Below are positions 8,731-61,226 of a DNA stretch of 64,000 nucleotides, piece after piece. Origin of the DNA: Octopus sinensis (taxonomy: Eukaryota); the NCBI RefSeq assembly GCF_006345805.1, contig NC_043023.1, positions 930,001 through 994,000 of the forward strand, given 5' to 3'. Under the pieces are notes generated by a model that was given only the letters and a program-made list of their open reading frames with translations, had not been told where the DNA came from and did no database searches. The translations under genes were made by a program, and so were the position numbers. The stretch's first letter is position 1, and each line of letters opens with the position of its first letter.

Positions 8731-8980
8731 GTAACGGGAAGCTTTATGAAAATAAACAAAAGACGAAGGCAGGTGGAATACAAACAAACAATTGTTTTAT
8801 TTATATTCCTGAGCGCCATACTAATACAATTGTTTGTTTGTATTCCACCTGCCTTCGTCTTTATATTCCTGAGCGCCATACTAATACAAGTCTTTTACGT
8901 TTCGAGCCTACGCTCTTCAACAGAAAGATACACAGAAAAGAAACACGGAGAGAAACAAGGAGAGAAAAAAATGCGTGCAG
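8731..8980 (-). mobile_element. Fold-back Penelope-LTR-like element with variant minimal hammerhead at 8891-8928
   Basis: Inverted repeat 8759-8796 vs 8827-8862; minus strand UCUUU CUGUUGA A GAGC guag GCUC GAAA CG UA AAAGA; relatives at 10410-10450 and 25480-25640. Confidence 0.55.
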
Positions 8981-9223
8981 AAGCTGTATGTATGTATGTA
9001 TGTATGTATGTATGTCTGTCTGTCTCTCTGTCTGTCTGTATGTATGTATGTATGTATGTATGTATGTATGTATGTATGTATGTATGTATGTATGTATGTA
9101 TATGCATGTGTTGTATGTCTTACTTTTTTCTTGTCCATCCCAAAGAACAATATCTGGCTAGTTATCCTTGCACTCGGTTGAAATTTTGATGGAAATGTTC
9201 CACGAACATTGCTGGTGTTGATG

Positions 9224-9265
<42 letters not shown>

Positions 9266-9729
9266 AACACAAATGCATAACGTTTATTACATGAATATAT
9301 ATCATATATTTTAGTATGATACACAAACATCATATAAAATACACACACACATGTATACACAGGCACCTAATCACAAATACTCGACACATATACTCACACA
9401 CGTGTGTTTGTATATACATACATATATATATATATATGTATAGACTCACACACACACACATACTGGAGTACACAAAGAGAATTTCATATCATATAAAATA
9501 TCCATCAAATTTATAGCATGGATGTGTGTTTGTGTAAAAAAAAAACCAATGGCAGTTAAAATATATATGGCCACTAGGGACTGTAAAAGAACGGCCATAT
9601 TGAATTGCCTTTCATCAGACACTTATCTTAAAATATTATCTTTTTAAATAATTAGCATTAATTGAAACAGCATACATACATACGTACATACATACATACG
9701 TTCATATATATATGTATATATCTATATAT

Positions 9730-10018
9730 AGAGAGAGATTGATAGACAGAGAGAAAAGGAGAGAGATTGATAGACAGAGAGAGAGAGAGAGAGAGAAAGG
9801 GAGAGAGATTGATAGACAGAGAGAGAGAGAGAGAGAAAGGGAGAGAGATTGATAGACAGAGAGAGAGAAAGAGAGAAAGGGAGAGAGATTGATAGACAGA
9901 GAGAGAGAGAGAGAAAGGGAGAGAGATTGATAGACAGAGAGAGGAGAGAGAGAGAGAAAGGGAGAGAGATTGATAGACAGAGAGAGAGAGAGAGAGAAAG
10001 GGAGAGAGATTGATAGAC

Positions 10019-10049
<31 letters not shown>

Positions 10050-10205
10050 TTGATAGACAGAGAGAGAGAGAGAGAAAGGGAGAGAGATTGATAGACAGAG
10101 AGAGAGAGAGAGAGAGAAAGGGAGAGAGATTGATAGACAGAGAGAGAGAGAGAGAGAGAAAGGGAGAGAGATTGATAGACAGAGAGAGAGAAAGGGAGAG
10201 AGATA
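9730..10205. repeat. (GA)n-based minisatellite, ~40 bp unit AAAGGGAGAGAGATTGATAGACA(GA)n
   Basis: About 12 visible units. Confidence 0.9.
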
Positions 10206-10447
10206 CATGTGTATGTACATATATATATCTTATATGTGATGTGTGTATATGTATATTTATATATATGCATGTGTGTATGTGTGAATTTATAATATGTATA
10301 TATATCTGAATGTGTACATTAATATATATGTGTGTGTATGCTTAGGCGTATGTATGGGCATGTTATGTAAATGTGTGTATATGCACATGTGTCTGTGTGT
10401 ATATATATTTTGCCTTCGTCTTTTGTTTATTTTCATAAAGCTTCCCG

Positions 10448-10486
<39 letters not shown>

Positions 10487-11112
10487 TACATGGGTGTTTA
10501 TAAATTTCTTTGTGACTAGTTTCCTGTAAAATAATCACAAATTAACATATATCATGGAGAGAAAGAGGCAGGAATGTTTGTGCGTGTATGTGTGTGCGTG
10601 TATGTGTGTGTGTGTATGTGTGTGTGTGTGCATGTGTTTAGCAAGCAGAACGCACCTCTGAGGCATATTTTTTCTGCGTTATTTTTGATAATGATAATCA
10701 ACATCCATATACTCTCCCTCCATACACACACACGTCATCATCACCGTCATCACATCATTATCATCACCATCATCATCGTCATAATCATCATCACCACCAT
10801 CATCACCATTACTCGTACAAATATATATATAGGTGTGTGTGTGCTGACTGCTGCACAGTTTCCATGCAGAGCCTTACACAAGTTATAATAGAAGGCCAGA
10901 ATGACTGAAGATATATGGTAAGTCACAAAGCCACGGCTGTGTGGTAAGAAGCTTGCTTCCCAACCACATGGTTCCAGGTTCAGTCCTACTGCGTGGCACC
11001 TTGGGCAAATGTCTTCTGTTGTAGCCTTGGGCATATCAAAGCCTTCTAAGTGGAATATGTAGACAGAAAAGGGTACACATGTCTGTGGAGTACTCAGCCA
11101 CTTGCACCTTAG

Positions 11113-11455
11113 CAAAGGGACATGGCTCAGTGGGTAGAGTGTTTGATTTACAGTCATGAAGTTGTGAGTTCGATTCCCGAGCCAGGCTGCGTGTTGTGTT
11201 CTTGAGCAAGACACTTTATTTCATGTTGCTCCAGTTCACTCAGCTGTAGAAATGAGTTGTGGTGTCACAGGTGCCAAGCTGTATCGGCCCCTTTGCCTTT
11301 CCCTTGGATAACATCAGTGGCGTGGAGAGGGGAGGCTGGAATGCAGAGGCGATTGCTGGTCTTCCATAAACAACCTTGCCTGGACTTGTGTACCTCGGAG
11401 GGTAACTTTCCAGGTGCAATCCCATGGTCATTCATGATGAAAAGAGGTCTTTACT
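11113..11455 (+). mobile_element. tRNA-headed SINE type C (V-domain-like)
   Basis: TGGCTCAGTGG A box, GTTCGATTCC B box, TGTGTTCTTGAGCAAGACACTT; other copies on the minus strand at ~25300-25445, 41860-42095, 46800-47130, 52290-52382. Confidence 0.7.
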
Positions 11456-11709
11456 AGGATTATAGGAGATAACAAATATCTTATTAGTGCTTCAGTAATG
11501 AGAATACTACACACACTTATGATATCTTTTACCCCTCTCTTGTTTGGGTCCTGCTGGGGTACTGCCTAGACAGCTTTTCATTATACACATTGACCCTAGT
11601 TTTCAAAGTCTGGTGCTTATCTTATCTGTCTTTTCACCAAACTGCTAAGTTATGGGAATGCAAACAAACCAATGGTGGTTATCAAGTGGTGGAGGTTACA
11701 GACAAAAAC

Positions 11710-12110
11710 ATCATCATCATCATCATCATCTTCGTTTAGCGTCCGCTTTCCATGCTAGCATAGGTTGGACAGTTCAACTGGGGTCTGGGAAGCCAGAAGG
11801 CTGCACCAGGCCCAGTCTGATCTGGCAATGTTTCTACGGCTGGATGCCCTTCCTAACGCCAACCACTCCTTGAGTGTAGTGGGTGCTTTTTACGTGCCAC
11901 TGGCACAGGTGCCAGACGGGGCTGGCAATTGGCCACGATCGGATGGTGCTTTTTACGGGCCAGGCGAGGCTGGCAATGGCCACGATCAGATGGTGCTTTT
12001 TACGTGCCACTGGCACGGAGGCCCGTTGGGGTGGCACTGGCAATGGCCACATTCGGATGGTTCGCTTACGTGCCACCGGCACTGGTATCACAGCTACAAT
12101 TTCCATTGAT
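11710..12110 (-). mobile_element. RTE LINE 3'UTR fragment with (GAT)n tail
   Basis: Homologous to the 3'UTR of the element at 23735-24432. Confidence 0.75.
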
Positions 12111-12289
12111 ATATATATGTATGTATGTATGTATGAATGAATGCATGCATGCATGCATGCATGCATGCATGCATGCATGTATGTATGTATGTATGTATGT
12201 ATGTATGTATGTATGTATGTATGTATGTATGTATGTATGTATGTATGTATGTATGTATAGGAAAAAAGCAACAAGAATGGATTAAATTA

Positions 12290-12373
12290 TCGGTACAATT
12301 CTTTCGTACGAGGACATCTTTAATAAGCTACAAAAAATGCAGTAAATATAGATGGCTCGTACTCGTCAGCCGA
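12290..12373 (-). ncRNA. Type I hammerhead ribozyme motif (one helix III substitution)
   Basis: UCGG CUGACGA GUACGAG...CUCGUAC GAAA GAAUUG UA CCGA; 7 bp helix II base and 4 bp helix I. Confidence 0.75.
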
Positions 12374-12759
12374 AAAAACATCAGAGATTCCCAAACATCA
12401 AAAGGGGTAGATACAAATGAGGGTGTGAGTTTAACTGCATTGAAGAAAGTTCGATTCCTGGAGATCCGATGAAAGGTCTTGAACTTACAGAATTTGTGCA
12501 TGTCCATATATAGTTCATAGTGAATTGTTAATCAAGTTATGTGAAGAAATTTTGGATACAATCGTGCGAAATTTCTGAGAATACGAGTAAGAAGCAAAGT
12601 CTATATATGGTCTATATATGTATGTATGTATGTATGTATCCTGTGAGCAGCGAAGATTGAGGAATTACAATCTATGCACATGCTGTGGATTTTTAATGTT
12701 TTTAAATGTTCCTCATACTGTGGTTCATGTATTCATCTGAAGAAAACGGTTTTTTATAA

Positions 12760-13168
12760 CTCTTTTACTCTTTTACTGGCTTCAGTCATTTGACTGCGGC
12801 CATGCTGGAGCACCACCTTCTGTTGGATTAAACGACCTCAGGATTTATTCTTTGTAAGCCTAGTACTTATTCTATTGGTCTCTTTAGCCGAACCATTAGG
12901 TTACGGGGACATAAATACACCAGCATCAGTTGTCAAGCGATGTTGGGGGGACAGACACAGACACATGCACACATACATACACACATATATATATATATAT
13001 ATATACGACGGGCTTCTTTCTGTTTCCGTCTACCAAATCCACTCACAAGCCTTTGGTCAGCCCAAGGCTATATAGGAAGATACTTGCCCAAGGTGCCACA
13101 CAGTGGGACTGAACCCGGAACCATGTGATTCGTAAGCAAGTTACTTACCACACAGCCACTTCTGTGCA
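12760..13168 (-). mobile_element. SINE type A
   Basis: Full-length match to the family. Confidence 0.85.
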
Positions 13169-13741
13169 TATAATGATATAATATATCCATTAATCAATTA
13201 AAATTGCTTTGTAAACATCTGTAATGAATTGACACCTATCCATCATTTATTTTATACACACACATACACACATTTAGAGAGACAGACAGACATTTTATAT
13301 AAATACACTTTGTATATTTTATTCATTTTTTTGTAAGTAACTCTTTAACATTTGAAGCTGTTGAATTAGTTCCGTTTTGCATGATTTACCATCTAAATCA
13401 TTCGATATGACCTGGAGTTGTTCTGCTTATTTTTTTGGTATTTGTCTCATAATTCTTCATGAGGCAGTTTCAAGTTTTCTCAATTAACCCACAGCATTTC
13501 TACTATTTCACAGCAAACAGCATCTCTATTAAGTTGTTCTGTCTGCATCTTATATTTGAAAGTTCATTCCTGCTTTCTTAATGTCTAACAAATGTTTTGA
13601 TATTTACCATGCATCACAATATTTATAAGAGATTCCTTCATCAGTATTATAGCCTAAACAGTTCTTTTGAGGTAAGTTAAGTTGCTGCCATACCAGAGAA
13701 CAATGGTGCTTAAGTCTGATTTGATTTCTTTCTCCAAAAGA

Positions 13742-13957
13742 CTCTTTTACTCTTTTACTTGTTTCAGTCATTTGACTGTGGCCATGCTGGAGCACTGCCT
13801 TTAGTCGAGCAACTCGACCCCAGGACTTATTCTTTGTAAGCCCAGTACTTATTCTATCGGTATCTTTTGCTGAACTGCTAAGTGACAGGGACGTAAACAC
13901 ACCAGCATCGGTTGTCAAGCAATGCTAGGGGGACAAACACACATACACAAACATATA

Positions 13958-14003
<46 letters not shown>

Positions 14004-14121
14004 GTGCATATGTACGACAGGCTTCTTTCAGTTTCCGTCTACCAAATCCACTCAGTGGGACTGAACCCGGAACTATGTGGTTGGTAAACAAGCTACTTAC
14101 CACACAGCCACTCCTGCGCCT
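13742..14121 (-). mobile_element. SINE type A with internal deletion
   Basis: AAATCCACTCA joined directly to GTGGGACTGAACC. Confidence 0.8.
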
Positions 14122-14237
14122 GATAACAATCTCTCTCTCTCTCTCTTAATCTTCAAACAAGGTCTCCATTAACTTACTGGAATTGTTCTGTTTAACTTTT
14201 GTATTCAGAAGTTCATTTTGCTATCTTTATTATCATA

Positions 14238-14845
14238 TAGGTGCAGGAGTGGCTGTGTGGTAAGTAGCTTGCTTACCAACCACATGGTTCCGGGTTCAGT
14301 CCCACTGTGTGGCACCTTGGGCAAGTGTCTTCTACTATAGCCTTGGGCAAACCAAAGCCTTTTGAGTGGATTTAGTAGATGGAAACTGAAAGAAACCCGT
14401 TGTGTATATATATATATATATATATATAGGCGCAGGAGTGGCTGTGTGGTAAGTAGCTTGCTTACCAACCACATGGTTCCGGGTTCAGTCCCACTGTGTG
14501 GCACCTTAGGCAAGTGTTTTCTACTATAGCCTCGGGCCAACCAAAGCCTTGTGAGTGGATTTGGTAGACGGAAACTGAAAGAAGCCCGTCGTATATATGC
14601 ATATATATATATATGTGTGTGTGTGTGTATATGTTTGTGTGTCTGTGTTTGTCCCTCTAGCATTGCTTGACAACTGATGCTGGTGTGTTTATGTCCCCAT
14701 AACTTAGTGGTTCAGCAAAAGAGACCGATAGAATAAGTACTGGGCTTACAAGGAATAAGTACTGGGGTCGATTTGCTCGACTAAATGCAGTGCTCCAGCA
14801 TGGCCACAGTCAAATGACTGAAACAAGTAAAAGAGTAAAAGAGAA
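14238..14845 (+). mobile_element. Two SINE type A copies: 5' half at 14238-14400, then a full copy at 14428-14845
   Basis: Two successive tRNA heads, the second inside the (TA)n of the first. Confidence 0.8.
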
Positions 14846-15279
14846 TATAATATATCTTTTATTGTAAGGCAGTAAACTGGCAGAAATGTTAGCATGCCAG
14901 GCAAAATGCTTCTCAGTATTTCATCCGCTGTTACGCTCTGAGTTCAAATTCTGCCGAGGTCGACTTTGCCTTTCTTCCTTTCAGGGTCGATTAACTAAGT
15001 ACCAGTTGTGTACTAGGGTCAATCTAATCTACTTGCCCCCTCCCCAAAAATTTTAGGCCTTGTGGCTAGTGTAGAAAAGAATCTATTACTGTGTTTTGGT
15101 CATTAGCCTGTGGCCATGCAAGGGACATTGCTTTGAAGAATTTCAGTTGAGCTGATTGATCTCAGCACTTATTTTCCATTTAAGCTTCACACTCTGTTGG
15201 TCTCTTTTGCTAAAGACCCTAAGTTGCAGGGATATAAACACACCAACACTGGTTGTAAAGCCTGGTACTTATTCTCTCT

Positions 15280-15692
15280 CTTTTACTCTTTTACTTGTTT
15301 CAGTAATTTGACTGTGGCCATGCTGGAGCACCATCTTTAGTTGAGGAAATCAACCTCAGGACTTATTCTTTGTAAGCCTAGTACTTATTCTATCGGTCTC
15401 TTTCACTGAACTGCTAAGTTACAAGGACTTAAACACACCAGCATCGGTTATCAAGCAATGTTGGGGTGGACAAACACAGACACACAAACATATACACACA
15501 CACATACACATATATATACATATATATGATGGGCTTCTTTTCAGTTTCTGTCTACCAAATCCACTCACAAGGCTTTGGTCAGCCCGAGGCTATAGTTGAA
15601 GACACACATCCAAGGTGCCACACAGTGGGACTGAATCCGGAACCATGTGTCTGGTAAGCAAGCTACTTACGACACAGCCACCCCTGCACCTA
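15280..15692 (-). mobile_element. SINE type A
   Basis: Family match, nested within older copies. Confidence 0.8.
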
Positions 15693-16344: not shown

Positions 16345-16898
16345 TATAACATTAAGTGTAATAACTATGGACCAAGTTATATTATACTTAATTTTATCTT
16401 CATTCGGGTGCCACATAAAATCGGCCAAAGACGTTGAATGTCACTTATTGATCTTCTTGAAGCTGGTGACATGGTTGCGATAACTATTCTTAAACGAATC
16501 AGCTGTTTGTCCAATGTAAACATACGGCCTTCCCCTTATGTGCATCGTACATTTATATACCACATTTGTACTCATACAGAGGTTCATCAATGGGCATTTT
16601 GATTTTTCTATGCATGAGCATTTATCATATTTATTTGTATACATGGCAGTTCTGACTTCATTTCCTGATGTTGCTGTGTTAGCTATATCTTAATTATTTC
16701 TACTATCACAATTTGGCCATATTTAGTGATTTTGATTATGGTTTACATCTCCTTCATTGGTATTTAGATGCGTATGTTTGCTAGATCCAATAGGGGGGTT
16801 ATTGAACAGTTGTTGCATTTTATCCTTGTTCATGACGTGCATATACTGCTTTAAATTAGCAGAGTTAGAATAGGATACCTTCACAGTGTGCCGATTAT
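16345..16898 (-). mobile_element. Penelope-like element remnant: end of RT, Cys linker and GIY-YIG endonuclease (decayed)
   Basis: NRHTVKVSYSNSANLK, then CSCIEKSKCPLMNLCMSTNVVYKCTM...YVYIGQTADSFKNSYRNHVTSFK, typical of Neptune-type PLE VVY-YIG...FK.RY.NH. Confidence 0.8.
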
Positions 16899-17164
16899 AT
16901 ATGTACATTCATATATAGATGTATGTATAGGCATGTACATATATATATAGACACACACACATATATATATATATACAAATTAGTAAATAAATGGCACAAC
17001 TAAGTACCGATATTTACTGGAAATAGCGAACATAAAAATACGACGCTAATGTGTAGCTTCACCGCGTATGTATTAGCAAAAATGCGTGTGTGCAACAAAT
17101 TAGAGAAAAAACCGACTTACCTCCAGGGAGAACATCTGAAAGATGAAACACCCGGAAAAGAATA

Positions 17165-17242
17165 ATGTGGGACCTCCAGGTTTCAGGTTTTACAAGATAT
17201 GTCTCTCACCCATATTTTGTTTTACCTTCATCAGCCAAGCAT
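17165..17242 (-). ncRNA. Type I hammerhead ribozyme motif
   Basis: AUGcuUGG CUGAUGA AGGU...ACCU GAAA CCUggAGG UC CCACAU; intact core and GUC cleavage triplet. Confidence 0.75.
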
Positions 17243-17345
17243 ATACCAAGACGAAATCTACGATGTTACCACATTAATACTATCACACTCGACTGAAATG
17301 CAGAACGCTAACAGTACGAGAAACGGTGAAGAAGTTTCAAAATAT

Positions 17346-17502
17346 ATGTAGGTCCCGGGTTGAGTCGGGGTTAACCACAGTAAATAAGGTACTCAATACA
17401 TGGCAGAGTAAATTAATTTATTTATAGAGGAGCTTCTACAGGACTAGAACTGTTTCATTGAATGAAACAGTTCTAGTCTGTGTAGAAAGCTCCTTCTATA
17501 AT
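17346..17502. repeat. Fold-back element with terminal palindrome (17423-17500); relative at 40590-40705
   Basis: GGACTAGAACTGTTTCATT g AATGAAACAGTTCTAGTC; GTAGGTCCCGGGTTGAGTCGGGGTTAACCACAGTAAATAAGGTACTCAATA recurs inverted at 40650-40705. Confidence 0.7.
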
Positions 17503-17530
17503 ATAAATTATATTATATATATAGGATTGC

Positions 17531-17562
<32 letters not shown>

Positions 17563-23192: not shown

Positions 23193-23720
23193 CTCTCAAA
23201 CCGCTAATAGTTGTAATTCTGAAATTTTTTCTAGAATTTTTTGCTACCCTTATATTTATTAATTAATGATTTTTTGGCTAATTTTGAAATTAATTCAGCA
23301 GTTTATTTTTGCTGCTGAGAAGACCGCACGATTGCGGTAGATTTTGAAAATTTATAGCATATAGACTTGAGGCTTCCTTACCATCGCCTCGTGGATATAT
23401 GTTCGTCCTTGGCTTCTCTGCTGATGAGGCACGCCAGTTGTAAATAAATTTAATTTAACTAATTTGTTTACTAAAGTTTGCCGAAACTATGCATAGTCCA
23501 GAGATGAAAGGGTAAACGTTTTTATGTCTCTTTCAATTTCAGAATTACAACTATTTAGCGGTTTGAGTTTGGCTGGTCTTTCTAGTGAGTCGAATGTCCT
23601 ATTATGGCCATTCCTTATATTGTTGAATGTATATTATATAGTCTTTGACTATCTTTTCTCTCTCACTGGACCGCTGGTAGCGGAGAATTTTTTCTAGAAT
23701 TTTTTGCTACCCTTATGTTT
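23193..23720 (+). mobile_element. Non-coding Penelope pLTR/retrozyme-like element (~530 bp)
   Basis: 5' end 23193-23226 is an inverted copy of 23536-23568; 23223-23256 is directly repeated at 23686-23720; (TA)n flanks; contains an intact hammerhead. Confidence 0.7.
23415..23504 (+). ncRNA. Type I hammerhead ribozyme, canonical core
   Basis: UCUCUG CUGAUGA GGCA...UGCC GAAA CUAUGCAUAG UC CAGAGA; helix I 6 bp, helix III palindrome ACUAUGCAUAGU, predicted cleavage after C23498. Confidence 0.88.
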
Positions 23721-23731
23721 ATTATATATAT

Positions 23732-25478: not shown

Positions 25479-25649
25479 AGTATTTTTTATTCTCTGTTTA
25501 TTTCCTCATTTTTCTTTCTGTTGAAGAGCATAGGCTTGAGATGTAAAAGACTTTCTCACTTTCTCAAGTATCAAGCTAATTAATACATCTGCTTGTTCCT
25601 CACCTGTCTTCGTCTTTTGTTTTTCTGTAAATTTCAACTATATATAAAT

Positions 25650-28199: not shown

Positions 28200-29214
28200 T
28201 AGGGTTGGCAACTAAGTTCCTGCCATTTATTAAAATCTAAATTTTTTAAAGGTTTAATAAAAAATAACAACTAATTAATCAATAATGTATTCACCGTTGT
28301 GGTTTTTTCAACTTCTTCCCAATGTTCAACAAGTTTTTCAATACCTCGTTGGTAGAAATTACCTGATTTCGACTCAAAAAATTGATCCAACCAAGCTCTC
28401 AAGTCTGCATCAGTATTGAACCAAACTCTGTGCATAGCATTTGAAAGAGATTGAAAGAGGTGGAAATCTGTTGGTGCCAAATCAGGAGAGTATGGCGGAT
28501 GTGGCAACATTTCCCAGCCATACGTTTGAATGGCTTCCTTGGTCATATTGGCAATATGAGGGTGGGTGTTGTGCAGCAGAAGAACCCCAAGCTCCCAATT
28601 AGGTCTTTTCTCTTGAACAGCCGTGTTGAGTCGTTCCATCTGTTGAACATCGTGTTCCACATTGACCATTTGGCAAACCAGCTGAGATTGTGGCTTGTTA
28701 ATTTTTGTTGTTGTCACTTAAAGCATGCAGAACCCATGCTCCATACTTCTGAAACTTTCCCATCGAGTGAAGATGCTTCTCTGTAGCAGTGTGGGAGTAT
28801 TCCATTTTCTCTGCCAGTTTCCTTTTCATTTGACAAGAATTTTTGTGCAAACTCAACTGGACGGCCAGAACATTTTTGAACTTGGCATACTAATCACGAG
28901 CTGTTCTTTCAGCTTTGGCACCGTCTCCATACACAATACACAGCTCAAATGTTGCAAGCATCTTTAGTGGCCTTAGAACCTTGATTAAAAGCAAAAAGAA
29001 GGAGGTGTTGAAAATGCTTGTTTTTCTTAACTTGACATTCCATTTTAATGATCTGAAAATAAACAACAATTAAGTAAAATTAACTAGAAAAAAAAACAAA
29101 ATAGATTCCAAAATGATTCAAAAATAGAATTCTCCAAAAAATAGATTCCAAAATTTAAAAAATGCTATAAATTCCAAAATTTAAATAACGTCTGGAACTT
29201 AGCTGCCAACCCAA
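28200..29214 (-). mobile_element. Decayed mariner transposon with TIRs
   Basis: TIRs GGGTTGGCAACTAAGTTCC (28202) / GGAACTTAGCTGCCAACCC (29194-29212), in (TA)n; transposase begins MECQVKKNKHFQHLLLFAF at 29043 and contains HPPYSPDLAPTDFHLFQSL; frameshifts and deletions. Confidence 0.9.
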
Positions 29215-34500: not shown

Positions 34501-35568
34501 GGAAAAGGTGACAAAATTGTGGAAAGGAAGAAGAAAGCATCGAATTGAGAAATTCTTACTATTCTTGTGTTTAAGAGAGGAGAAAAAGAGAGAATAGAAT
34601 TCTTTGTATTTATTTGAAAGTTTTATAAGAATTTAAGAGGAAAAAGAGAGAGAATGAGGTGGGTGGAGAATGAAGATTTTTAAATTCATTTCTGAGATTT
34701 GAAAGAACTTGACTCTTTTGCATTCAGATTATTTTGTCAAATGTAATATTTATTTACTCACATTGTTTTGAATTAATTAACCATGCACTATATCATAGCT
34801 TTCTGATTTCATTGATGTTAATGTTTAGTTTTAGAATGGCATTGTAAGGTAGGTGTGAGAGGTAGGATCTGATCAGTTTAACCATTTAGTATACAGATTC
34901 CTCGGTCAAATGTAATAATTATTTATTCCCATTGTTTTGAATTAATCATGCATCATCTTTTTTTTCTTTTTTACTCTTTTCCTTGTGTCAGCCATTTGAC
35001 TGCGGCCATGCTGGAGCACTGCCTTTAGTCGAGCAAATTGACTAAGCCTAGTACTTTGTAAGCCTAGTTCTTATTCTATCATTCTCTTTTGCCAAACCGC
35101 TAAATTACGGGGACATAAACACACCAGCATCAGTTGTCAAGTGATGTTGGTGGAGACAAACACAGACACACAAACATAAGCACATATATATATACATATA
35201 CATATATACGACAGGCTTCTTTCAGTTTCCATCTACCAAATCCACTCACAAGACCTTGGTCAGCCCGAAACTATAGTAGAAGACACTTGCCCAAGGTGCC
35301 ATGCAGTGGGACTGAACCCGAGACCATGTGATTGGTAAGCAAGCTACTTGCCACACAGCCACCCCTGCACCTATAAGATTTTGATGGTGTGATTGTTTAT
35401 TTTCAGAATGACATGTAGGGTGGCATGAGAAGCTAGATCTGTCCAGTTTGACCATAAAACAGAATATTAGGATCTGATATGGCGAGTTTATTCCTTTAGC
35501 ATTTAGATTACTCTATCAAATGTAATGCTCATTTATGCAGATTGTTTTGAAGTAATCAGTCTCAAGAA

Positions 35569-35805
35569 TTCAATGTGGTATAGTGGTTAAGAGCGCAGGC
35601 TACTAACCTCAAGATTCCAAGTTCGATTCCAAGTAGTGACCTGAACAATAATAATAATGATAACATCAAAAAATATCTTAGGAATGAGAACCCAGGTTCA
35701 AAATTTCCCCAAGACACCTGATGAAGGCTGGAGGGTATATCAGCCGAAATGTTGTGTGTAACAACAAACAAGATGAGGACAAATATCTGTCAAATGTAAA
35801 TAATG
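35569..35805 (+). mobile_element. tRNA-headed SINE type D with a minimal hammerhead (35713-35758)
   Basis: GTGGTATAGTGG A box, GTTCGATTCC B box; GACAC CUGAUGA A GGCUG...CAGCC GAAA UGUU GUGU. Confidence 0.75.
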
Positions 35806-36556
35806 ATGTGATGGTTTATTTTTAGAATGGCATTGTAAGGTAGGGGTGGAGGTAGGATCTGATCAGTTTAACCATTTAGTATACAGATTCCTCGGTCAAA
35901 TGTAATAATTATTTATTCCCATTGTTTTGAATTATCATGCATCATCTTTTTTTCTTTTTTACTCTTTTCCTTGTGTCAGCCTTTGACTGCGGCCATGCTG
36001 GAGCACTGCCTTTAGTCGAGCAAATTGACTAAGCCTAGTACTTTGTAAGCCTAGTTCTTATTCTATCATTCTCTTTTGCCAAACCGCTAAATTACGGGAC
36101 ATAAACACCCAGCATCAGTTGTCAAGTGATGTTGTGGAGACAAACACAGACAACACAACATAAGCACATATATATATACATATACATATATACGACAGGC
36201 TTCTTTCAGTTTCCATCTACCAAATCCACTCACAAGACCTTGGTCAGCCCGAAACTATAGTAGAAGACACTTGCCCAAGGTGCCATGCAGTGGGACTGAA
36301 CCCGAGACCATGTGATTGGTAAGCAAGCTACTTGCCACACAGCCACCCCTGCACCTATAAGATTTTGATGGTGTGATTGTTTATTTTCAGAATGACATTG
36401 TAGGGTTGGCATGAGAAGCTAGATCTGTCCAGTTTGACCATAAAACAGAATATTAGGATCTGATATGGCGAGTTTATTCCTTTAGCATTTAGATTACTCT
36501 ATCAAATGTAATGCTCATTTATGCAGATTGTTTTGAAGTAATCAGTCTCAAGAATT

Positions 36557-36790
36557 CAATGTGGTATAGTGGTTAAGAGCGCAGGCTACTAACCTCAAGA
36601 TTCCAAGTTCGATTCCAAGTAGTGACCTGAACAATAATAATAATGATAACATCAAAAAATATCTTAGGAATGAGAACCCAGGTTCAAAATTTCCCCAAGA
36701 CACCTGATGAAGGCTGGAGGGTATATCAGCCGAAATGTTGTGTTAACAACAAACAAGATGAGGACAAATATCTGTCAAATGTAAATAATG
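36557..36790 (+). mobile_element. Duplicate SINE type D with hammerhead (36699-36744)
   Basis: As 35569-35805; helix I GACAC/GUGUU. Confidence 0.75.
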
Positions 36791-37339
36791 ATGTGATGGT
36801 TTATTTTTAGAATGGCATTGTAGGGTAGATGAGATAAGCTGGACCCAGCCAGTTTGAACATAAAACCAGCCAGATATGGCTGGCTTAACACTTTAGCATT
36901 CAGATTACTCTGTCAAATAAGAAGCTTATTTATCCATTGTTTTGAATTAATCAAGCATTACCTTGTGGCTTCAAGATTTTGATGATGTGATTGTTTATTT
37001 TAGGAATGACCATGTTGGGTAGGTGTGAAAGGTTGGATCTGGTTGGTTTCAGCATTAAACTGTTAAACTATTTGGCCAGATTATGGCCAGTTTAATCCTT
37101 TGGCATTGAGATTATTCTGTCCAATGTAAAGCTTATTTATTCACATTGCTTTGAACTAATCACACATTATCTCATTGCTTTGAGATTTTGATGATGTGGT
37201 TACTTTTAGAATTACTAACAAAGAAAAGCAAGAACAAAGGAGGCAAAGAAAGACAGGGAAGCAAGGAGGGAGGAAGGGAAGGATTACTGAAAAGGGGAGG
37301 TAATTCGTATAAAGTTCTGTTCTGCTGTGATGATAATCT

Positions 37340-43376: not shown

Positions 43377-43485
43377 CTATAATAATAATAATAATAATAA
43401 TAATAGCTGATGAGAATGCATCGTAGTTCTTCACTCTGACTTCTGAAACTCTAAGTACTATAATGACAATCGTTTGTTCTAAATT

Positions 43486-44453: not shown

Positions 44454-44777
44454 ACAGATTTTTCTGCAAAATATGGGTAGTTTATCCTGTCCATGCTATA
44501 TTATTAGCTTTATCCTGTGTTTGAGAATAAAATTATTTCCTTATCTTTATCTTTCAATACATCTCAACACGTCTAAAGCAAACTTTGTTTACTTTCATTG
44601 TAATTTGAATTTAATATATATATATAAAGTTAAAGTTAACTTTTTGGCTCAAAAAGCAAAAAGCAAGGCCATGTAGGATATATAAGGTTAAGATCGTTAA
44701 TTTAAATTAAGTAACGATCTTATCAAGTGGCCAGCATGGAAATAAAAACCTTCAAAGGTAATAATTATTATTAAACT

Positions 44778-45202
44778 TTATAACTTATGGCATCTACGAG
44801 ATACCACCATGCTGAAAATAGCAGCCAGTAACTGACTCTAAAACCACCTTAAGTGTTCATATAGCACACGGAGAGAAGACAAAAAGACAAAATAAAACTA
44901 ATAAAAAATTAATGGATAATTCCAGTATGTATAAGTTCGTATATGTAAGTATTCGTATGTTGTAAATATACATATATATATATGTTACTATCTGAGTATA
45001 TTCCACTGATGAGGCAAAGCATTTCTTAATGCAAAGCCAGAAATCCGGGATCTAGAATTATCCAGTAATTTTTTTACTAGTTTCATCTTGTCTTTTTGTC
45101 TTCTCTCCCTGTTGCTATATGAACACTTAAGGTGGTTTTAGAGTTAGATACTGGCTGCTATTTTCAGCATGGCGGTATCTCGGAGATACCCTAAGTTATA
45201 AT
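44778..45202 (+). mobile_element. Fold-back element (~147 bp arms) with a hammerhead at 45000-45058
   Basis: Arms 44778-44924 / 45053-45202; AUUCCA CUGAUGA GGC...GCC A GAAA UCCgGGA UC UAGAAU, with the other arm preserving UGGAAU. Confidence 0.75.
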
Positions 45203-45262
45203 TTTATATATATATTTATATGTTAATATATATATATATAACCGTGTGTGTATATATGTACA

Positions 45263-49439: not shown

Positions 49440-49442
<3 letters not shown>

Positions 49443-50119
49443 ATTTATAAAAATATGGTAAAGTAAAAAAATTCACTTTACCGCACACCGAACTTTTCAG
49501 AAATGGCAGCCAAAAATTTGGCTATTTCTTCAACTGCAAGTAAAAGTCTCCAGACAATGCATACTCAGAAAAATAACTCACATAGGTATAAGGGAAAAAC
49601 AATGAAAGATCACATCCATATAAGATACCCGAGAACAGCCTGTTTCTGGATTCGTGGGTTAAACGCCACTTTTCCTTCATCAGCTCAGAGATTTCTTCTG
49701 CTTTGGATTTGAAAATACTAAGGACCAAACATACCCATCCGATATCTGTAACATCGGACAAACTATGCTGGACACACAGTACTAGCGAATCCAAAAATAC
49801 AAATGAGATATCGGATATCGGATGGGTATGTTTGGTCCTTAGTATTTTCAAATCTAAATCAGAAGAAATCTCTGAGCTGATGAAGGAAAAGTGGCGTTTA
49901 ACCCACGAATCCAGAAACAGGCTGTTCTCGGGTATCTTATATGGATGTGATCTTTCATTGTTTTTCCCTTATACCTATGTGAGTTATTTTTCTGAGTATG
50001 CATGTCTGGAGACCTTTTACTTGCAGTTGAAGAAATAGCCAAATTTTTGGCTGCTATTTCTGAAAAGTTCGGGTGCGGTAAAGTGAATTTTTTTACTTTA
50101 CCATATTTTTATAAATTAA
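49440..50119. mobile_element. Young fold-back element, ~305 bp near-identical arms, each with a hammerhead
   Basis: Arms 49440-49746 / 49814-50119; hammerheads at 49871-49932 (+) and 49628-49689 (-): UCUGAG CUGAUGA A GGA...UCC A GAAA CAGgCUG UU CUCGGG. Confidence 0.85.
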
Positions 50120-50210
50120 TACTTCAAATATACTGTAAATGGTCCTTTTACATACCGAATACTGCTTGGTCGAATTGATTAACAATTAATTAATTCTACC
50201 CTTTTTTAAT

Positions 50211-50241
<31 letters not shown>

Positions 50242-51960: not shown

Positions 51961-52027
51961 ATATAGCACCTGCCAGGTCCTATCTCTGGGTTAATTACCA
52001 TGTCTGTGTATGTCTTTTGTATGGTTT

Positions 52028-54070: not shown

Positions 54071-54946
54071 AAATATCACATATTTGTGTGTGTGTGTGTG
54101 TGTAAGTATGTATGTATGCATGCATTGCATGTATGTATGTATGTATGTATGAATGTATGTATGTATATGGTATGGTATATATATATATAATATATACACC
54201 ACTTTTTTTTTACTCTTTTTACAGGTTCAGTTATTTGACTGTGGCCATGAGGTGAGCACCGCCTTTAATCGAGCAAATCGATCCCAGGACTTTCCTTGTA
54301 AGCCTAGTACTTATTCTATCGGTCTCTCTTTGCCAAACCACTAAGTTATGGGGATGTAAACACACCAGCATCGGTTGTCAAGAATCTTTGGGGGGACAAA
54401 CAGACACACCAACACATACACACATATACATACATATATACAACAGGCTTCTTTCAGTTTCCGTCTACCAAATCCACTCACAAGTCTTTGGTCGGCCCGA
54501 GGCTATAGTAGAAGACACTTGCCCAAGGTGCCACACAGTGGGACTGAACCTGGAACCATGTGGTTCATAAGCAAGCTAGTTACCACATATATATATGAGT
54601 ACAAATATGTATGTATATATGCATACACACATATTTTTTTATTTTTTAAATTTTATCTAGTTTCAGCTCACGAGCTGTGGCCATGCGGGGGCACCGCCAT
54701 TTGTTTATATATGTATAAATGTATCTGGATATATGTAGCTGAGTGATATTTGACTGCTATTTCTAGCAAGCTAGCTATCATATAGAGGTGTTCCTTATTG
54801 GCTCATACATGCATACACATACATAAAATATAAAGGAATTTTGACTGCTGTTTCTAAAATTCCGATCTACCATGTGGAGGTCTCCCTCGTTTGTTCCTTC
54901 TTGACATAGACAGTACAGGTGAGGAGTGTCACCTGTACGGACTGAC

Positions 54947-54997
54947 CTGGGCCAGGTGAATTGAAATGTAACGAAGCTTGTTCTGTCGCCAATGTGT
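54947..54997 (-). CDS. Candidate 51 nt internal exon (THWRQNKLRYISIHLAQ), gene unidentified
   Basis: Unique sequence bounded by pyrimidine-rich ...CCCTCAG and CAG|GTCAGT; open phase-0 frame. Confidence 0.4.
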
Positions 54998-55199
54998 CTG
55001 AGGGTTCGAACATGCATGGAGATGTGGAGAGAGATAAAAATGAGATTGAGACGGACACAATGAGGTGTTGAGATCAAATAACGGATAAGACAGCTGAGGT
55101 GTCTTGTAGTGTGTGTGTGTGTGTGTGGTAGAATAAAGTGAATTGGGTTGATAGGTACATAGAAAAATTGATATGTGGATAGGGAGATAGATTGATGAA

Positions 55200-55273
55200 T
55201 AGAGATGGATAGATAGATAGATAGAGAAGATAGACAGATAGATAGGTAGACAGATAGATAGGTAGATAGACAG

Positions 55274-55308
<35 letters not shown>

Positions 55309-55515
55309 GAAGATAGGTAGGTAGATAGATAGATAGATAGATAGAGAAGATAGGTAGATAGATAGATAGAGAAGATATGTAGGTAGATAGATAGATAGAT
55401 AGATAGATAGTGAAGATAGGTAGATAGATAGATAGATAGAGAAGATAGGTAGATAGATAGATAGATAGAGAAGATAGGTAGGTAGATAGATAGATAGATA
55501 GATAGAGAAGATAGG

Positions 55516-55559
<44 letters not shown>

Positions 55560-55572
55560 GAAGATAGGTAGG

Positions 55573-55604
<32 letters not shown>

Positions 55605-55687
55605 GAAGATAGGTAGATAGATAGATAGATAGATAGAGAAGATAGGTAGGTAGATAGATAGATAGATAGATAGATAGAGAAGATAGG

Positions 55688-55731
<44 letters not shown>

Positions 55732-55781
55732 GAAGATAGGTAGGTAGATAGATAGATAGATAGATAGATAGAGAAGATAGG

Positions 55782-55833
<52 letters not shown>

Positions 55834-55999
55834 GAAGATAGGTAGATTGATAGATAAATAGGCAGGTAGGTAGGTAGATACATAAATAGATAGGTTGCAG
55901 ATAGATAGATAGAAAGATTGATAGATAGATGGATAGATATAGATTGATAGAGAGAGAGGAGAGAGAGTGAGAGAGTGATAGATAGATAAACAGACAGAC

Positions 56000-56038
<39 letters not shown>

Positions 56039-56160
56039 CAGAGATAGATAGACAGATAGATAGGTGGACAGATAGATTGATAGATAGATAGATAGATAGG
56101 TAGGTAGGTAGGTGGGTAGGTAGGTAGAGAGATAGATAGATATAGATAGATAGATTGATA
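55200..56160. repeat. (GATA)n minisatellite punctuated by GAGAAGATAGGTA
   Basis: Directly visible. Confidence 0.92.
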
Positions 56161-56278
56161 GGTGACCCAATAAATTGATACATATAGAGAAAGGAAGACA
56201 TGGATGGATAGAAAATAACACATAGGTAGACAGAGGTTGGAAGATGGATAAATTGATAGCTACAGATATAAACAGATA

Positions 56279-56592
56279 TCAAAATAAGCAACAAGGATAT
56301 GCAGAGGTAATGCAGTACGATCGTTTCATGCGACTCCATTTAATTGAACAATGCAATCATTTCATTACATCAATTTAATATGTAGAGCAATCTTCAGCTG
56401 CACAAACACATATAGAATTTAATTTAATTATACTAATGTTTCCATCTGTTCTAATTTAATTAAATTCTATGTCTTTGTGCAGCTGAGGATTGCTCTGCAT
56501 TTTAAATTGATGATTGTATTGTTCAATTAAATAGAGTTGCATGAAACGATCGTACTGCATTACCTATGGGTATCCTTGTTGCTTATTTTGAT
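56279..56592. mobile_element. Fold-back element with a hammerhead in each arm
   Basis: Plus 56478-56559 UGCAG CUGAGGA UUGC...GCAU GAAA CGAUCG UA CUGCA; minus copy 56311-56402 has CUGAAGA. Confidence 0.8.
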
Positions 56593-57537
56593 TTTAATCA
56601 ACTTACTTAGAAATTGTATGGATAATACCATACTAAATTCTGGTGTCTCAACTCAAGTACCATATTCATCTGAATCTAAATTTTTGCTGATATAAACAGA
56701 TATAAATAGATAGACAGAGGTAGTTAGATAATAGCTATCCATCTACCCATCCATGTATCTAAATATGGCAGCGTAAGAAAAGAGGAAGTTGGAAAATTTA
56801 TTGGTACTGTTTATTCATCATTACATATCTCTCTTTCTCTTTTACTTCTTTCAGTAATTTGACTGTGGCCATGCTGGAGCACCGCCTTTAGTCAAGCAAA
56901 TCGATCCCAGGACTTATTCTTTGTAAGCTCAGTACTTATTCTATCGGTCTCTTTTGCCGAACTGCTAAGTGACGGGGACATAAACACACCAGCATCAGTT
57001 GTCAAGCAATGTTGGGGGGACAAACACAGATACACACACATATATATATATATACATATATACCAAATCCACTCACAAGAGACTATATTAGAAGACACTT
57101 GCCCAAGATGCCAAGCAGTGGGACTGAACCCGGAACCATGTCAGGGTGTACACGAATCATGAAAATACCTCATGGAGTGGTGACTATGCCCTGAATACTT
57201 ATGGGTTGCATTTGTTCAGATTCCTGCCAGGGATATGGTGAAGCTGTGGGACTGCAACATGGTAGATTGTGGTGGGGTAGTGGAAGAGCAGAACTGAACA
57301 TCTTACGTAGATGCTGAGCAGAGGAATCCCTAGAAGATCAACAGTGAGGACCACCAAGCTTTATCAGGGGAGTAACTGCAATAGGCTATCCAAAGGCTTT
57401 GTGTCTGTGGTTGTGTGGTCAGCTATTGAAAGACTCACTATGACTCAAGCTCCCAATTCAGATGGAATTGGGTGGTGAGAAAGAGAGAGTCACAGGAGTC
57501 TGTGCAAGCAGTGTGACCAACTGGACATGTTAGGGAC

Positions 57538-57870
57538 ATCATCATCGTTTAGCATCCGCTTTCCATGCTGGCATGGGTTGGACGGTTCAACTGGGGTCTG
57601 GGAAGCCAGAAGGCTGCACCAGGCCCAGTCTGATCTGGCAGTGTTTCTACGGCTGGATGCCCTTCCTAACGCCAACCACTCCATGAGTGTAGAGGGTGCT
57701 TTTTACATGCCACCAGCACAGGTGCCAGGCGAGGCTGGCAATGGCCACAATTGGATGGTGCTTTTTACATGCCACCGGCACAGAAGCCAGTCAGGGTGGT
57801 GCTGGCAACGGCCACGTTCAGATGGTTCTCTTATGTGCCACCGGCACTAGTATCACAGCTACAATTCCAT
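57538..57870 (-). mobile_element. RTE LINE 3'UTR fragment
   Basis: Family match. Confidence 0.75.
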
Positions 57871-58129
57871 TGTAGAGATATGTAAGGGATTTTAGATGGT
57901 AGTATTTAGATTTTAGAAGGCACCACATGCATATGCACACAAACACACAAACACACATGTATGAAGAGAGTGAGAGGAGAGGATGGTGGTTTTCTTGTGT
58001 AAAAGGATTATGTCAAGGTATTATACATCATCATCATCATCATTTGATGTCCATTTTCCATGCTGGCATGGGTTGGATGGTTTGACAGGAACTGGCAAGC
58101 TGGAGAGCTGCCCTGGTTTCAATTGTGAG

Positions 58130-59206
58130 CATGTGTGTGTGTATGTGTGTATATATGTATGTATGTATGTGTGTATATAGATATATGTATGTATGTGTAT
58201 ATATATATATATATGGGTGTATATATGTGTGTGTGAAGATATATATGTGAGTGTATATATATATATGTGCGTATGTATGTGTGTATATATGTATGTATGT
58301 ATGTGTGTATATATATGTATGTATGTGTATATATAGATATATGTATGTATGTGTATATATATATATATGGGTGTATATATGTGTATGTGAAGATATATAT
58401 GTGAGTGTATATATATATATGTGCGTATGTATGTGTGTATATATGTATGTATGTATGTGTGTATATATATGTATGTATGTGTATATATAGATATATGTAA
58501 TGTATGTGTATATATATATATGGGTTATATATGTGTTATGTGGATATCTATGTGAGGTAATATATATATATGTGCGTATGTATGTGTGTATTATGTATGT
58601 ATGTATTGTGTATAGATATGTATGTATGTGTATATATGATATATGTATGTATGTGTTATATATATATATGGGTGTAATAATGTGTATGTGAAATATATAT
58701 TGTGAGTGTATATATATATATGTGTGTGTGTAGTGTGTATATATGTATGTTGTATGTTGTGTTATATATATGTATGTGTATATATAGATATATGTATTTA
58801 TGATGTATATATATATATATGGGTGTACTATTGTATGTGAAGATATATATGTGAGTGTATATATATATATGTGCGTATGTTGTGTGTATATATTATGTAT
58901 GTATGTGTGTATATATATGTATGTATGTGTATACTAGATATATGTCTGTATGTGTTTATATATATATGGGTGTATATATGTGTATGTGAAGATATATATG
59001 TGAGTGTTATATATATTGTGGTTGTGTGTGTTGTATATATGTATGTATGTATGTGTGTATATCTGTATGTATGTGTATATATAGATATAGTCGTATGTGT
59101 ATATATATATATCTGGGTGTATATATGTTGTGTGAAGATATATATGTGAGTGTATATATATATATGTGCGTATGTATGTATGTGTATATATGTATGGGTG
59201 TATATA

Positions 59207-59247
<41 letters not shown>

Positions 59248-59450
59248 GAGTGTATATATATATATATATGTATGTGTATATATATATATATATGTATGAG
59301 TGTGTGTACATATATGTGTGTATGTCTGGGTGTGTATACATATATATATATATGTATGCATGTATGTATGTGTATGTATATATGCATATGTATATGTATG
59401 CATGTATATATACAGATATATATACATGTATGTATGTGTATGCATGTGTG
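58130..59450. repeat. (TA/TG) microsatellite with ~150 bp higher-order period
   Basis: GTGAAGATATATATGTGAGTG recurs about every 150 bp. Confidence 0.8.
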
Positions 59451-60323
59451 CTCTAAATAAGCACTCGAACTATTCAGGTCAAAGCCGTGAGATAAGAACA
59501 ATTCCCAGCCAAGACATTACATGACAAATATTTCAGGATGTCGACTGTACTCAGACTTCCATTGTCTAGAAAGAAGAGGGGGGGTTACACACGAGTAGTT
59601 CAACCGGCACGTAAGTGTGTGTGTGTGTATGGGGGGGAGGATAAATATAGTGCACATACATTCACACATGTATCTGCTTTTACGTATATGAAAGGTGGCG
59701 AGCTGGGAGAAACGTTAGCACTCTGGGGGAAATGCTTGGCAGTGTTTCATCTGTCTTTAGGTTCTGAGTTCAAATTCCACTGAGGTCGACTTTGCTTTTT
59801 ATTCTTTCGGAGTCGATAAGATAAGTACCAGTTGTGTACTGGGATTGATCTAATTGATTGGCCCCACCTATGCAAAAATTCTGGGCCCTGTGCCTAGAGT
59901 AGAAAAGATTATGTATATTGATAGAAAATATAAGTAGTTAGGTGCAGGAGTGGCTGTGTGGTGAGTAGCTTGCTTACCAACTACATGGTTCCGGGTTCAG
60001 TCCCACTGCGTGGCACCTTGGGCAAGTGTCTTCTACTATAGCCTCGGGCCAACCAAAGCCTTGTGAGTGGATTTGGTAGACAGAAACTTGAAGAAGCCTG
60101 TCGTATATATGTATATATATCTGTATGTATATGTTTGTATGTCTGTGTTTGTCTCCCCCCACCCACCATCACTTGACAACCGATGCTGATATATATATAT
60201 ATATACACACACACAGACATACACACACACACACACATATGAATATAGGTGAAGGTGTAGCTGTGTGGTAAAAAGTTTACTTCCCAACCCAATGGTTCGA
60301 GGTTCAGTCCCACAGTGTGGCAC

Positions 60324-60423
60324 NNNNNNNNNNNNNNNNNNNNNNNNNNNNNNNNNNNNNNNNNNNNNNNNNNNNNNNNNNNNNNNNNNNNNNNNNNNNN
60401 NNNNNNNNNNNNNNNNNNNNNNN
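60324..60423. other. Assembly gap (100 N)
   Basis: N run. Confidence 0.99.
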
Positions 60424-60574
60424 GCCGAGTAAGGGGGGTCCCCTCCATCCCCCCCCACCCACGATAAATATTTGTGATAACTTACAACTTGATATCTGAT
60501 ATGTGCGTATATTTGTGTGCATGTATGTGACTATATATACACACACACACACATGCATACATAGATATACATAT

Positions 60575-61023
60575 TCTCTCTTTTACTTGTTTCAGTCATT
60601 TGACTGCGGCCATGCTGGAGCACTGCCTTTAATCGAGCAACTTGACCCCGGGACTTATTCTTTTGTAAGCCCAGTACTTATTCTATCGGTCTCTTTTGCC
60701 GAACCGCTAAGTGACAGTGACGTAAACACACCAGCATCGGTTGTCAAGCGATGCTAGGGGGACAAACACAGACACACACACGCATATATATATATATATA
60801 CATATATATATACACACATATATATATATATTTATATATATATATATATACATATATACGGCGGGCTTCTTTTCTGTTTCCATCTACCAAATTCACTCAC
60901 AAGGCTTTGGTCAGCCCGAGGCTATAGTAGAAGACACTTGCCCAAGGTGCCATGCAATGGGACTGAACCCGGAACCATGTGGTTGGTAAACAAGCTACTT
61001 ACCACAAAGCCACTCCTGCGCCT
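60575..61023 (-). mobile_element. SINE type A
   Basis: Family match. Confidence 0.85.
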
Positions 61024-61142
61024 ATATATATATATATATATATATTATTAAGGGCTCCTAAATAAGGATGCCAAGTGCTAGGGGCACAAAGAAAGGATAG
61101 ATTTATTGAGAGTGAAAATCAAAAACATTTACCGATAACGAT

Positions 61143-61226
61143 ACATCCCGGACTGATCAGTTTCTACCTCTTTCTAGCAAAACAAACAGAATATGTATGC
61201 TACGGTTGGTTTCATCAGCGAGACAC
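61143..61226 (-). ncRNA. Type I hammerhead ribozyme motif in a fold-back element (IR 61047-61082 / 61226-61262)
   Basis: GUGUCUCG CUGAUGA A ACC...GGU A GAAA CUGAUCAG UC CGGGAUGU; helix III palindrome ACUGAUCAGU. Confidence 0.82.

Follow-up and report, generated by a model that had tools for sequence, protein, structure and literature searches.

Hammerhead ribozyme motifs in many dispersed repeat families of a 64 kb stretch of the octopus genome, with probable Penelope-like drivers

Described systems and the octopus window

Hammerhead ribozymes accompany several described kinds of retroelement, with which we compare a 64,000-nucleotide stretch of the Octopus sinensis genome (NC_043023.1, positions 930,001 to 994,000; G000:C27:930001-994000 of the 2.72 Gb genome in our numbering; hereafter the window) that carries hammerhead motifs in members of 11 repeat families. 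The Hydra-clade Penelope-like elements (PLEs) of Craig et al. 2021 (PMC8557442) share with two of these families the protein motifs RW(R/K), DKT, CxCx5C, CxxC and CxH, a GIY-YIG endonuclease at the C-terminus, a hammerhead in the pseudo-long terminal repeat (pLTR), (TA)n targets, an inverted 5'-truncated copy and an optional tail. The octopus frame is longer (1124 amino acids with an Asn-rich insert, whereas published elements are mostly <3 kb), helix II has a long loop, and the tails measure ~60-120 nt compared to 30-40. An octopus Hydra PLE with a hammerhead and a (TA)n preference, Hydra-1_Obim, is contained in Files S1/S2 of PMC8557442; its hammerhead sequence differs from that of the two window families. 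With this element and the 235 Rfam hammerhead hits reported for giant squid (PMC6962438) in print, the remark in a preliminary description of the window that no description for cephalopods was known has to be corrected.

In metazoan PLEs, the minimal hammerheads (Cervera and de la Pena 2014, PMC4209133) likewise form many heterogeneous families per genome, mostly as single motifs, and share opposite-strand pairs 100-700 bp apart, a palindromic helix III, an extra nucleotide after A9 and a U3-A8 variant, while many families described here have palindromes of 6-10 nt and a long helix II. That study includes molluscs (Lottia, Crassostrea); no cephalopod appears in the one supplement file searched, and another file could list some. 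Animal non-LTR (long terminal repeat) retrozymes (Cervera and de la Pena 2020, PMC7229834; bioRxiv 10.64898/2026.07.22.740005) resemble a further part of the window. Their head-to-tail units are non-coding and low in GC, each contains a single type I hammerhead and pairs strongly with itself when circular, and a PLE origin and mobilisation by PLEs have been proposed for them. The octopus units of 430-560 bp occur mostly as monomers, dimers and two-armed insertions instead of long arrays, and their hammerheads are of the PLE type, not canonical. Li, Clavereau and Pollet 2026 (bioRxiv 10.64898/2026.07.22.740005), who propose a PLE origin of retrozymes, list no mollusc among their 35 genomes. Finally, Sm-alpha and Sj-alpha of Schistosoma (reviewed in PMC6765202) share with one octopus family, 35718, an RNA polymerase III (Pol III)-type head upstream of the hammerhead. 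In this family the hammerhead is minimal and PLE-type, and head-to-head inverted arms (7/10 loci) stand in place of tandem arrays.

Among the publications listed for hammerheads in octopus or cephalopods and for retrozymes in octopus there was no survey of such a population; the supplements of bioRxiv 10.64898/2026.07.22.740005 could list cephalopod motifs. The word "ribozyme" is absent from the main text of two octopus repeat papers (PMC13282606, PMC8967140), one of which counts 31 recently active PLE families in octopus. The population is real and well supported, and its biology is of a described kind. New here are the measured scale and diversity and the finding that two window families connect directly to Hydra-clade parents; a variant core position 6 and the diversity of helix III palindromes are added as two oddities. 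The way in which PLEs mobilise passengers with hammerheads, and the importance of the cut, are still questions in PMC11167929 and bioRxiv 10.64898/2026.07.22.740005. One genome here combines young intact PLE frames, their truncated ends, non-coding units whose ends are exactly mapped and a core variant that arose naturally, so that both trans-mobilisation and the cleavage of dimers can be put to a direct test.

Hammerhead motifs, families and density

Using a strict type I descriptor (CUGANGA, helix I of at least 4 bp, helix II of at least 3, GAAA, helix III and UH), we found nine hammerheads in the window compared to means of 0.04-0.06 in dinucleotide shuffles (three sets of 100, shuffled as a whole, in 500-nt blocks and in 200-nt blocks), and none of the 300 shuffles reached nine. 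Motifs and families are named by the window position of core C3. Hammerheads or recognisable remnants were found at all 15 places named in the preliminary description, which had read every one as CUGANGA/GAAA type. Eight motifs pass the strict test (23421+, 35718+, 36704+, 49683-, 49877+, 56397-, 56483+, 61218-), 17234- passes a relaxed test only (helix I of 3 bp, followed by a bulge), and the other six are damaged or variant. The core is intact in 45006+ (mismatch in helix I) and 12369- (first pair of helix III broken), 8923- has CUGUUGA instead of CUGANGA, and AAAA replaces GAAA in 18612+, 18595- and 21990+. The ninth strict hammerhead, 43407+, had been missing from the earlier list.

The 15 motifs represent 11 insertions of 11 multi-copy families, because in three cases a pair of motifs occupies the opposite arms of a single inverted insertion, and 35718 and 36704 are copies within a local duplication. 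This ~1 kb tandem duplication (34813-36828, 98% identical) may be real or an assembly artefact. Except for a 16-nt simple-repeat match, no sequence match between named families exists within the window; 12369 and 56483 are nevertheless distant relatives, linked via autonomous copies. An inverted arm accompanies six of the 11 insertions and is absent from 12369, 17234 and 35718.

All 11 families are dispersed repeats with at least 40 matches listed per search, and the first-look candidates per family search numbered 361-3,952, which are not copy numbers. Their ages vary, from 96-100% identity (49877, 12369, 8923) down to 71-86% (18612, 21990). The majority lines of nine of ten families tested pass a relaxed descriptor with position 6 free, and relatives of 21990 (71-83% identical) retain GAAA, CCAUUGG and UC. 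Therefore, the families to which the damaged window copies belong have a whole core, and these copies have decayed. In 18612, whose relatives are 79-86% identical, the majority line restores GAAA and fails in helix I, and none of eight copies passes the relaxed descriptor. 8923, by contrast, is a fixed variant.

Covariation was followed in 21 motifs of the 12369/56483 (Hydra) lineage, in which 97.2% of the cells are paired and 27 double changes are distributed over all three helices. Slid partners reach at most 42% paired cells and six double changes, and none of 500 shuffles reaches the observed values, which is a descriptive figure and not a probability, since the rows are related and were picked by pattern; this tempers the support that it lends. 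Nine sister pairs with homologous flanks, comprising 65 base pairs, gave 8 doubly changed, 6 singly changed and 51 unchanged pairs (P 3e-5 to 0.017 under a rough neutral model).

Two traits that lie outside the descriptor also distinguish real motifs from chance hits, namely a self-complementary helix III (11/20 vs 1/20) and C15.2 (18/21 vs 1/20). Helix III alone has a hairpin energy of 0 to -0.4 in all eight motifs, and its self-duplex reaches -7.8 to -15.9 kcal/mol in six of the eight, being weak or absent in two 2-nt types. The palindromic helix III matches the dimer design described in PMC4209133. None of 351 cross pairs between palindromes comes within 2 kcal/mol of self-pairing, which follows from the palindromes being distinct and does not speak for selection. 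A strict pairing code is disfavoured by CAAUUG, CGAUCG and CAUG, each of which turns up again in lineages that are unrelated. The family of L014, L046 and window 17414-17510 has a true stem-loop helix III instead of a palindrome and therefore might cut as a monomer.

To place the window in its genome, we sampled 74 evenly placed stretches of 10 kb at round coordinates of C1-C30 (placed contigs, 739,700 bases). The sample contained 23 strict motifs in 21 insertions, compared to 0-2 in eight shuffles, and in addition four position-6 and four U3-A8 motifs. A few sample hits look like chance (0.9 expected in 740 kb). The density of ~1 per 33 kb corresponds to ~81,000 motifs genome-wide (95% interval 50,000-124,000), and the one motif per 5 kb noted for the window does not hold across the genome. 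The accompanying idea of a large and diverse population is borne out: the sample holds 19 lineages, 17 of them seen once, with a Chao1 estimate of ~64 that is a lower bound slightly inflated by ~1 chance hit, and 44 lineages were counted in a separate tally of the DNA examined. The window is ~3-4x richer than the genome average (6 strict insertions vs 1.8 expected, P 0.011, for a window chosen for them), and the adjacent 60 kb has two. Published counts, obtained with other descriptors, are >6,000 in 16 families for coral, ~5,000 for mussel, up to 120,000 for axolotl with its genome of 28 Gb, and ~2,000 for Schistosoma and ~9,000 for Xenopus (PMC4209133). Thus, octopus is probably several-fold denser than these, not orders of magnitude.

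Penelope-like parents, non-coding units and insertion footprint

The Penelope link postulated for the window could be established directly for two families. The 12369 family extends upstream into a reverse transcriptase (RT) and GIY-YIG domain in L277 and L278, and L284 (G000:C11:54580000-54586000) holds a full element consisting of pLTR, a 1124-amino-acid frame with RWR, DKT, CxCx5C and CxxC, a second pLTR and (TA)n; 8/28 loci of the family match the L284 protein. In L331, a Hydra-type GIY-YIG lies ~540 nt upstream of a 56483-family hammerhead on the same strand. An RT with C-terminal GIY-YIG and the Hydra-clade motifs (RWK, DKT, CxCx5C, CxxC, CxH) was found in L284, L278, L291-L301 and L331; L284 reads YRHD and L278 YRDD. 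No Pfam match to a Hydra-type protein was obtained, and the assignment uses these motifs and a comparison by eye with the supplement alignment of PMC8557442. A pLTR with hammerhead, a (TA)n target, an inverted truncated copy and a tail are all present in families 12369 and 56483. Judged by sequence, both families derive from coding Hydra-clade elements, of which they represent the 3' ends after 5' truncation, so that the label "non-autonomous" does not apply to all families. In L284:298-3669, two long inserts rich in Asn separate RT and endonuclease and extend the Hydra-type frame.

Some candidate assignments were rejected. A Nematis identity for the L278 endonuclease gave way to Hydra, with which its features agree according to section 11 of PMC8557442. 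The 56483 matches beside GIY-YIG in L075/L131 are not followed by a downstream hammerhead of the 56483 family. For 61218, an insert in L012 resembling the relic of a longer element is present at this one locus only, and an endonuclease relic read by eye in the unit found no tblastn support.

Five families consist of non-coding units arranged head to tail, each unit with a single type I hammerhead: 17234 (432 bp), 23421 (463), 45006 (~495), 49877 (562) and 61218 (452). Their GC content is 31-38% and their longest frame starting with Met spans 49-57 amino acids. Folded as circles, 17234, 23421, 45006 and 49877 have z-scores of -3.5, -7.2, -6.0 and -6.6, respectively. Two or more complete hammerheads in succession were observed in 17234 and 49877, with a single instance in 23421 and in 45006 and none in 61218. 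Fourteen sequencing runs presumed to be RNA contain 20-42% of the sequence words from 16930-17400, which is no evidence either way on expression, and assembled contigs compared with the 17234 unit and the L284 RT gave partial cover with no informative joint or molecule ends and are equally neutral.

The ends of the copies follow a regular pattern. Among 115 terminal copies of nine families, of which a few were counted twice via overlapping loci, 104 have (TA)4 within 400 nt of helix III, compared to 31% of random positions. The distance from helix III to (TA)n mostly takes two fixed values per family (46-52 and 166-169 nt for 12369, ~145 and ~240 for 23421, ~205 and ~300 for 49877). An opposite-strand arm occurs at 37/88 loci of eight families; 8923 and 18612 are excluded from these counts because their queries held inversions. 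PLEs are characterised by two ends, by inverted truncated copies and by (TA)n targets (PMC8557442), and the two fixed ends seen here match the two internal priming sites that were found for a PLE in vitro (PMC11167929).

Young PLE families are also present elsewhere in the genome. GIY-YIG matches occur with open frames of up to 883 amino acids, and frames of 775-781 amino acids with RT and GIY-YIG, putatively Neptune-type from their motifs, have copies that are 99% alike. Hammerheads, some with a U3-A8 core, lie shortly before (TA)n in these families. No window family was found as the pLTR of a Neptune-type element; in the parts examined, the blastn matches at these loci do not adjoin the frames. 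Young families of this type (L118:2032-4374, L121:2745-5069, L232) have open frames of 775-784 amino acids, and several carry the U3-A8 core missed by a CUGANGA search. A further PLE family (L246-L253; 5,368 first-look candidates) differs from the present Neptune and Hydra types in its RT and C-terminal GIY-YIG; its 3' region is rich in (CA)n, and its hammerhead is of the U3-A8 kind. The GIY-YIG matches in L082 and L083 are unlike PLEs, and we take them to resemble the SLX1 nuclease.

Two families of short elements differ from the rest. In 35718, A and B boxes stand at the conserved 5' end in the window and in 10 heads at 9/10 loci; ARAGORN called no tRNA. The 3' end, a hammerhead followed by a non-A tail, is not like that of a long interspersed element (LINE) and has no A-tail; a LINE partner was not searched for. 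The other family, 8923, concerns core position 6. A6 matters for hammerhead catalysis. In this ~300 bp family (L052, L063, L068, L175-L185, L306, L315), the core reads CUGUNGA in 15/19 distinct copies, whereas no copy reads CUGANGA; the remaining core letters are retained, with N7 as the sole variable position. Its copies are 98-100% alike over 104 nt and end in (TA)n ~114 nt past helix III. With seven homologues in 740 kb, it is young and very abundant (roughly 26,000 copies), while the look-alike families L183, L305 and L317 keep A6. A literature search for a hammerhead A6U variant listed only a twister paper; the position-6 variant may be in print in the work of Lunse et al. on small PLE hammerhead variants.

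Explanations and further features of the window

We consider it probable that many independent retroelement families end in these hammerheads, that two of the families are truncated Hydra-clade PLEs, and that PLE enzymes acting in trans likely insert the non-coding ones into (TA)n. With the motifs, multi-copy families, covariation, two coding parents, five head-to-tail units, 3' ends at (TA)n, arms and young PLE frames observed, the connecting steps would be transcription, self-cleavage, RNA circles and trans-mobilisation. A tandem source locus would be transcribed, and two hammerheads would pair via their palindromic helix III, which is unable to fold by itself, and cut out a unit-length RNA that possibly circularises. 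The RT/GIY-YIG protein of a PLE would nick (TA)n and prime 45-300 nt past the cut, at either of two sites. If copying ran on across the unit junction, permuted tandems could result, and a second, opposite copy could lead to a fold-back. Most genomic copies, having one hammerhead per strand, would be dead ends that decay later.

Several points weigh against this explanation. No contiguous coding parent was found for nine of the 11 families, therefore their driver is deduced from the footprint, and the proposed linking of flanks to PLE RT/GIY-YIG frames succeeded for two families only. PLE matches were absent from 68 loci of six families, and contiguity was not established for the five matches in 38 loci of three families. 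Family 35718 shows no (TA)n bias (3/15), the 61218 unit folds as a circle no better than its shuffles (z -1.4), and single motifs are not unusually stable (z above -2 in eight of nine). One of nine Xenopus dimers was cleaved (bioRxiv 10.64898/2026.07.22.740005). Furthermore, insertion in vitro was unaffected by a dead hammerhead and no RNA-seq ends were seen at the cut (PMC11167929), and the thriving position-6 family, young, abundant and without A6, also speaks against a needed cut. These last results favour the same elements and PLE drivers with dispensable cutting, the hammerhead fold riding beside, or forming part of, a protein-binding tail. The Hydra subfamilies, however, keep invariant core letters at 82% mean identity while their helices covary, and the position-6 family retains all other core letters and varies at N7 alone, which makes this alternative unlikely in our view.

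That the non-coding units descend from PLE ends and now spread via LINE enzymes, in the manner of short interspersed elements (SINEs), or by DNA-level tandem amplification, would agree with the common LINE-type frames in the sample, with the Pol III boxes and missing (TA)n bias of the tRNA-headed family, and with the local amplification via unequal crossover discussed by Li et al. (bioRxiv 10.64898/2026.07.22.740005). Since the copies lie on many chromosomes, are permuted, lack A-tails and have inverted arms, and since their two fixed 3' ends resemble those of the coding Hydra family, we regard it as distinctly improbable. Chance matches in AT-rich, repeat-rich DNA could be invoked for the few chance-like sample hits and for the outcome of the Rfam check, which gave no match at the gathering score in the window. 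The miss is likely due to long helix II loops and an unfoldable helix III; of 316 E-value matches, the 150 listed were microsatellite-driven, nearly all to microRNA models, with no hammerhead among them. The shuffle controls and covariation refute chance, family conservation also contradicts it, and we give it practically no weight. Beyond the preferred explanation of PLE-driven, hammerhead-tipped families, it may be speculated, though we hold it to be rather doubtful, that no animal counted so far has a more diverse ribozyme-retroelement community than octopus (~80,000 intact motifs, 60+ lineages, three life styles, 2+ PLE clades), that helix III palindromes act as family pairing codes allowing cutting only with their own kind, and that the young ~26,000-copy family runs on a U6 core.

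Table 1 Hammerhead-bearing and related features of the window (positions within the window; PLE, Penelope-like element).
Position	Strand	Feature	Core and predicted cut	Remarks
8709..8985	-	~300 bp repeat, variant hammerhead CUGUNGA (U at position 6)	C3 8923, predicted cut after 8896	inner inversion downstream
12262..12600	-	5'-truncated 3' end (pLTR) assigned to a Hydra-clade PLE	C3 12369, predicted cut site 12294	family helix III CAAUUG, first pair broken in this copy
16364..16975	-	old broken Hydra-type GIY-YIG remnant, lineage with 56483 hammerhead		tblastn E 5e-14; split by SINE; 79% identity over 617 nt to L331
16985..17345	-	partial copy, 431-435 bp non-coding head-to-tail unit	C3 17234, predicted cut site 17171	family helix III CCUGCAGG
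17414..17510	.	fold-back fragment, other hammerhead family, 3' half of motif only		absent from earlier list; intact relatives in L014, L046
18470..18680	.	old two-armed insertion	cores 18612+, 18595-	both GAAA to AAAA
21850..22085	+	old decayed copy	core 21990	approximate bounds; GAAA no longer present, helix II disrupted
23195..23722	+	one permuted 463 bp non-coding unit and 32 bp inverted arm	C3 23421, predicted cut site 23498	flanked by (TA)n runs; helix III CUAUGCAUAG
25513..25553	+	second, decayed copy of position-6 variant family		
35574..35805	+	tRNA-like head with A and B box, followed by (AAT)n and a minimal hammerhead	C3 35718, predicted cut site 35753	
36560..36790	+	duplicate of 35574..35805 element	C3 36704, predicted cut site 36739	A box 36562-36572, B box 36607-36616
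43397..43468	+	decayed copy, further hammerhead family	C3 43407, strict	relative in L057 83% identical, helix II 6 bp
44678..45204	+	two-armed insertion, ~490-500 bp non-coding unit	C3 45006, predicted cut site 45052	helix III UCCGGGA
49441..50213	.	young two-armed insertion, 560-562 bp non-coding unit	cores 49683-, 49877+	flanked by (TA)n runs
56261..56712	.	two-armed, 5'-truncated 3' end assigned to a second Hydra-clade element	cores 56397-, 56483+	helix III CGAUCG
61024..61372	-	two-armed insertion, ~452 bp non-coding unit	C3 61218, predicted cut site 61151	flanked by (TA)n runs; helix III CUGAUCAG

Besides these elements, the window contains a single run of ~400 CAT triplets (2267-3464) and a short frame at 7800-8189 (+) with three C2H2-like zinc-finger motifs that, read by eye, is possibly a LINE end. 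A fragment at 28271-28717 (+) resembles what we take to be a mariner-type transposase. An abundant short repeat across the window (e.g. 14235-14614), which is without a hammerhead match and whose head has 11 close matches in the window, supplies most of the window's long inverted repeats.

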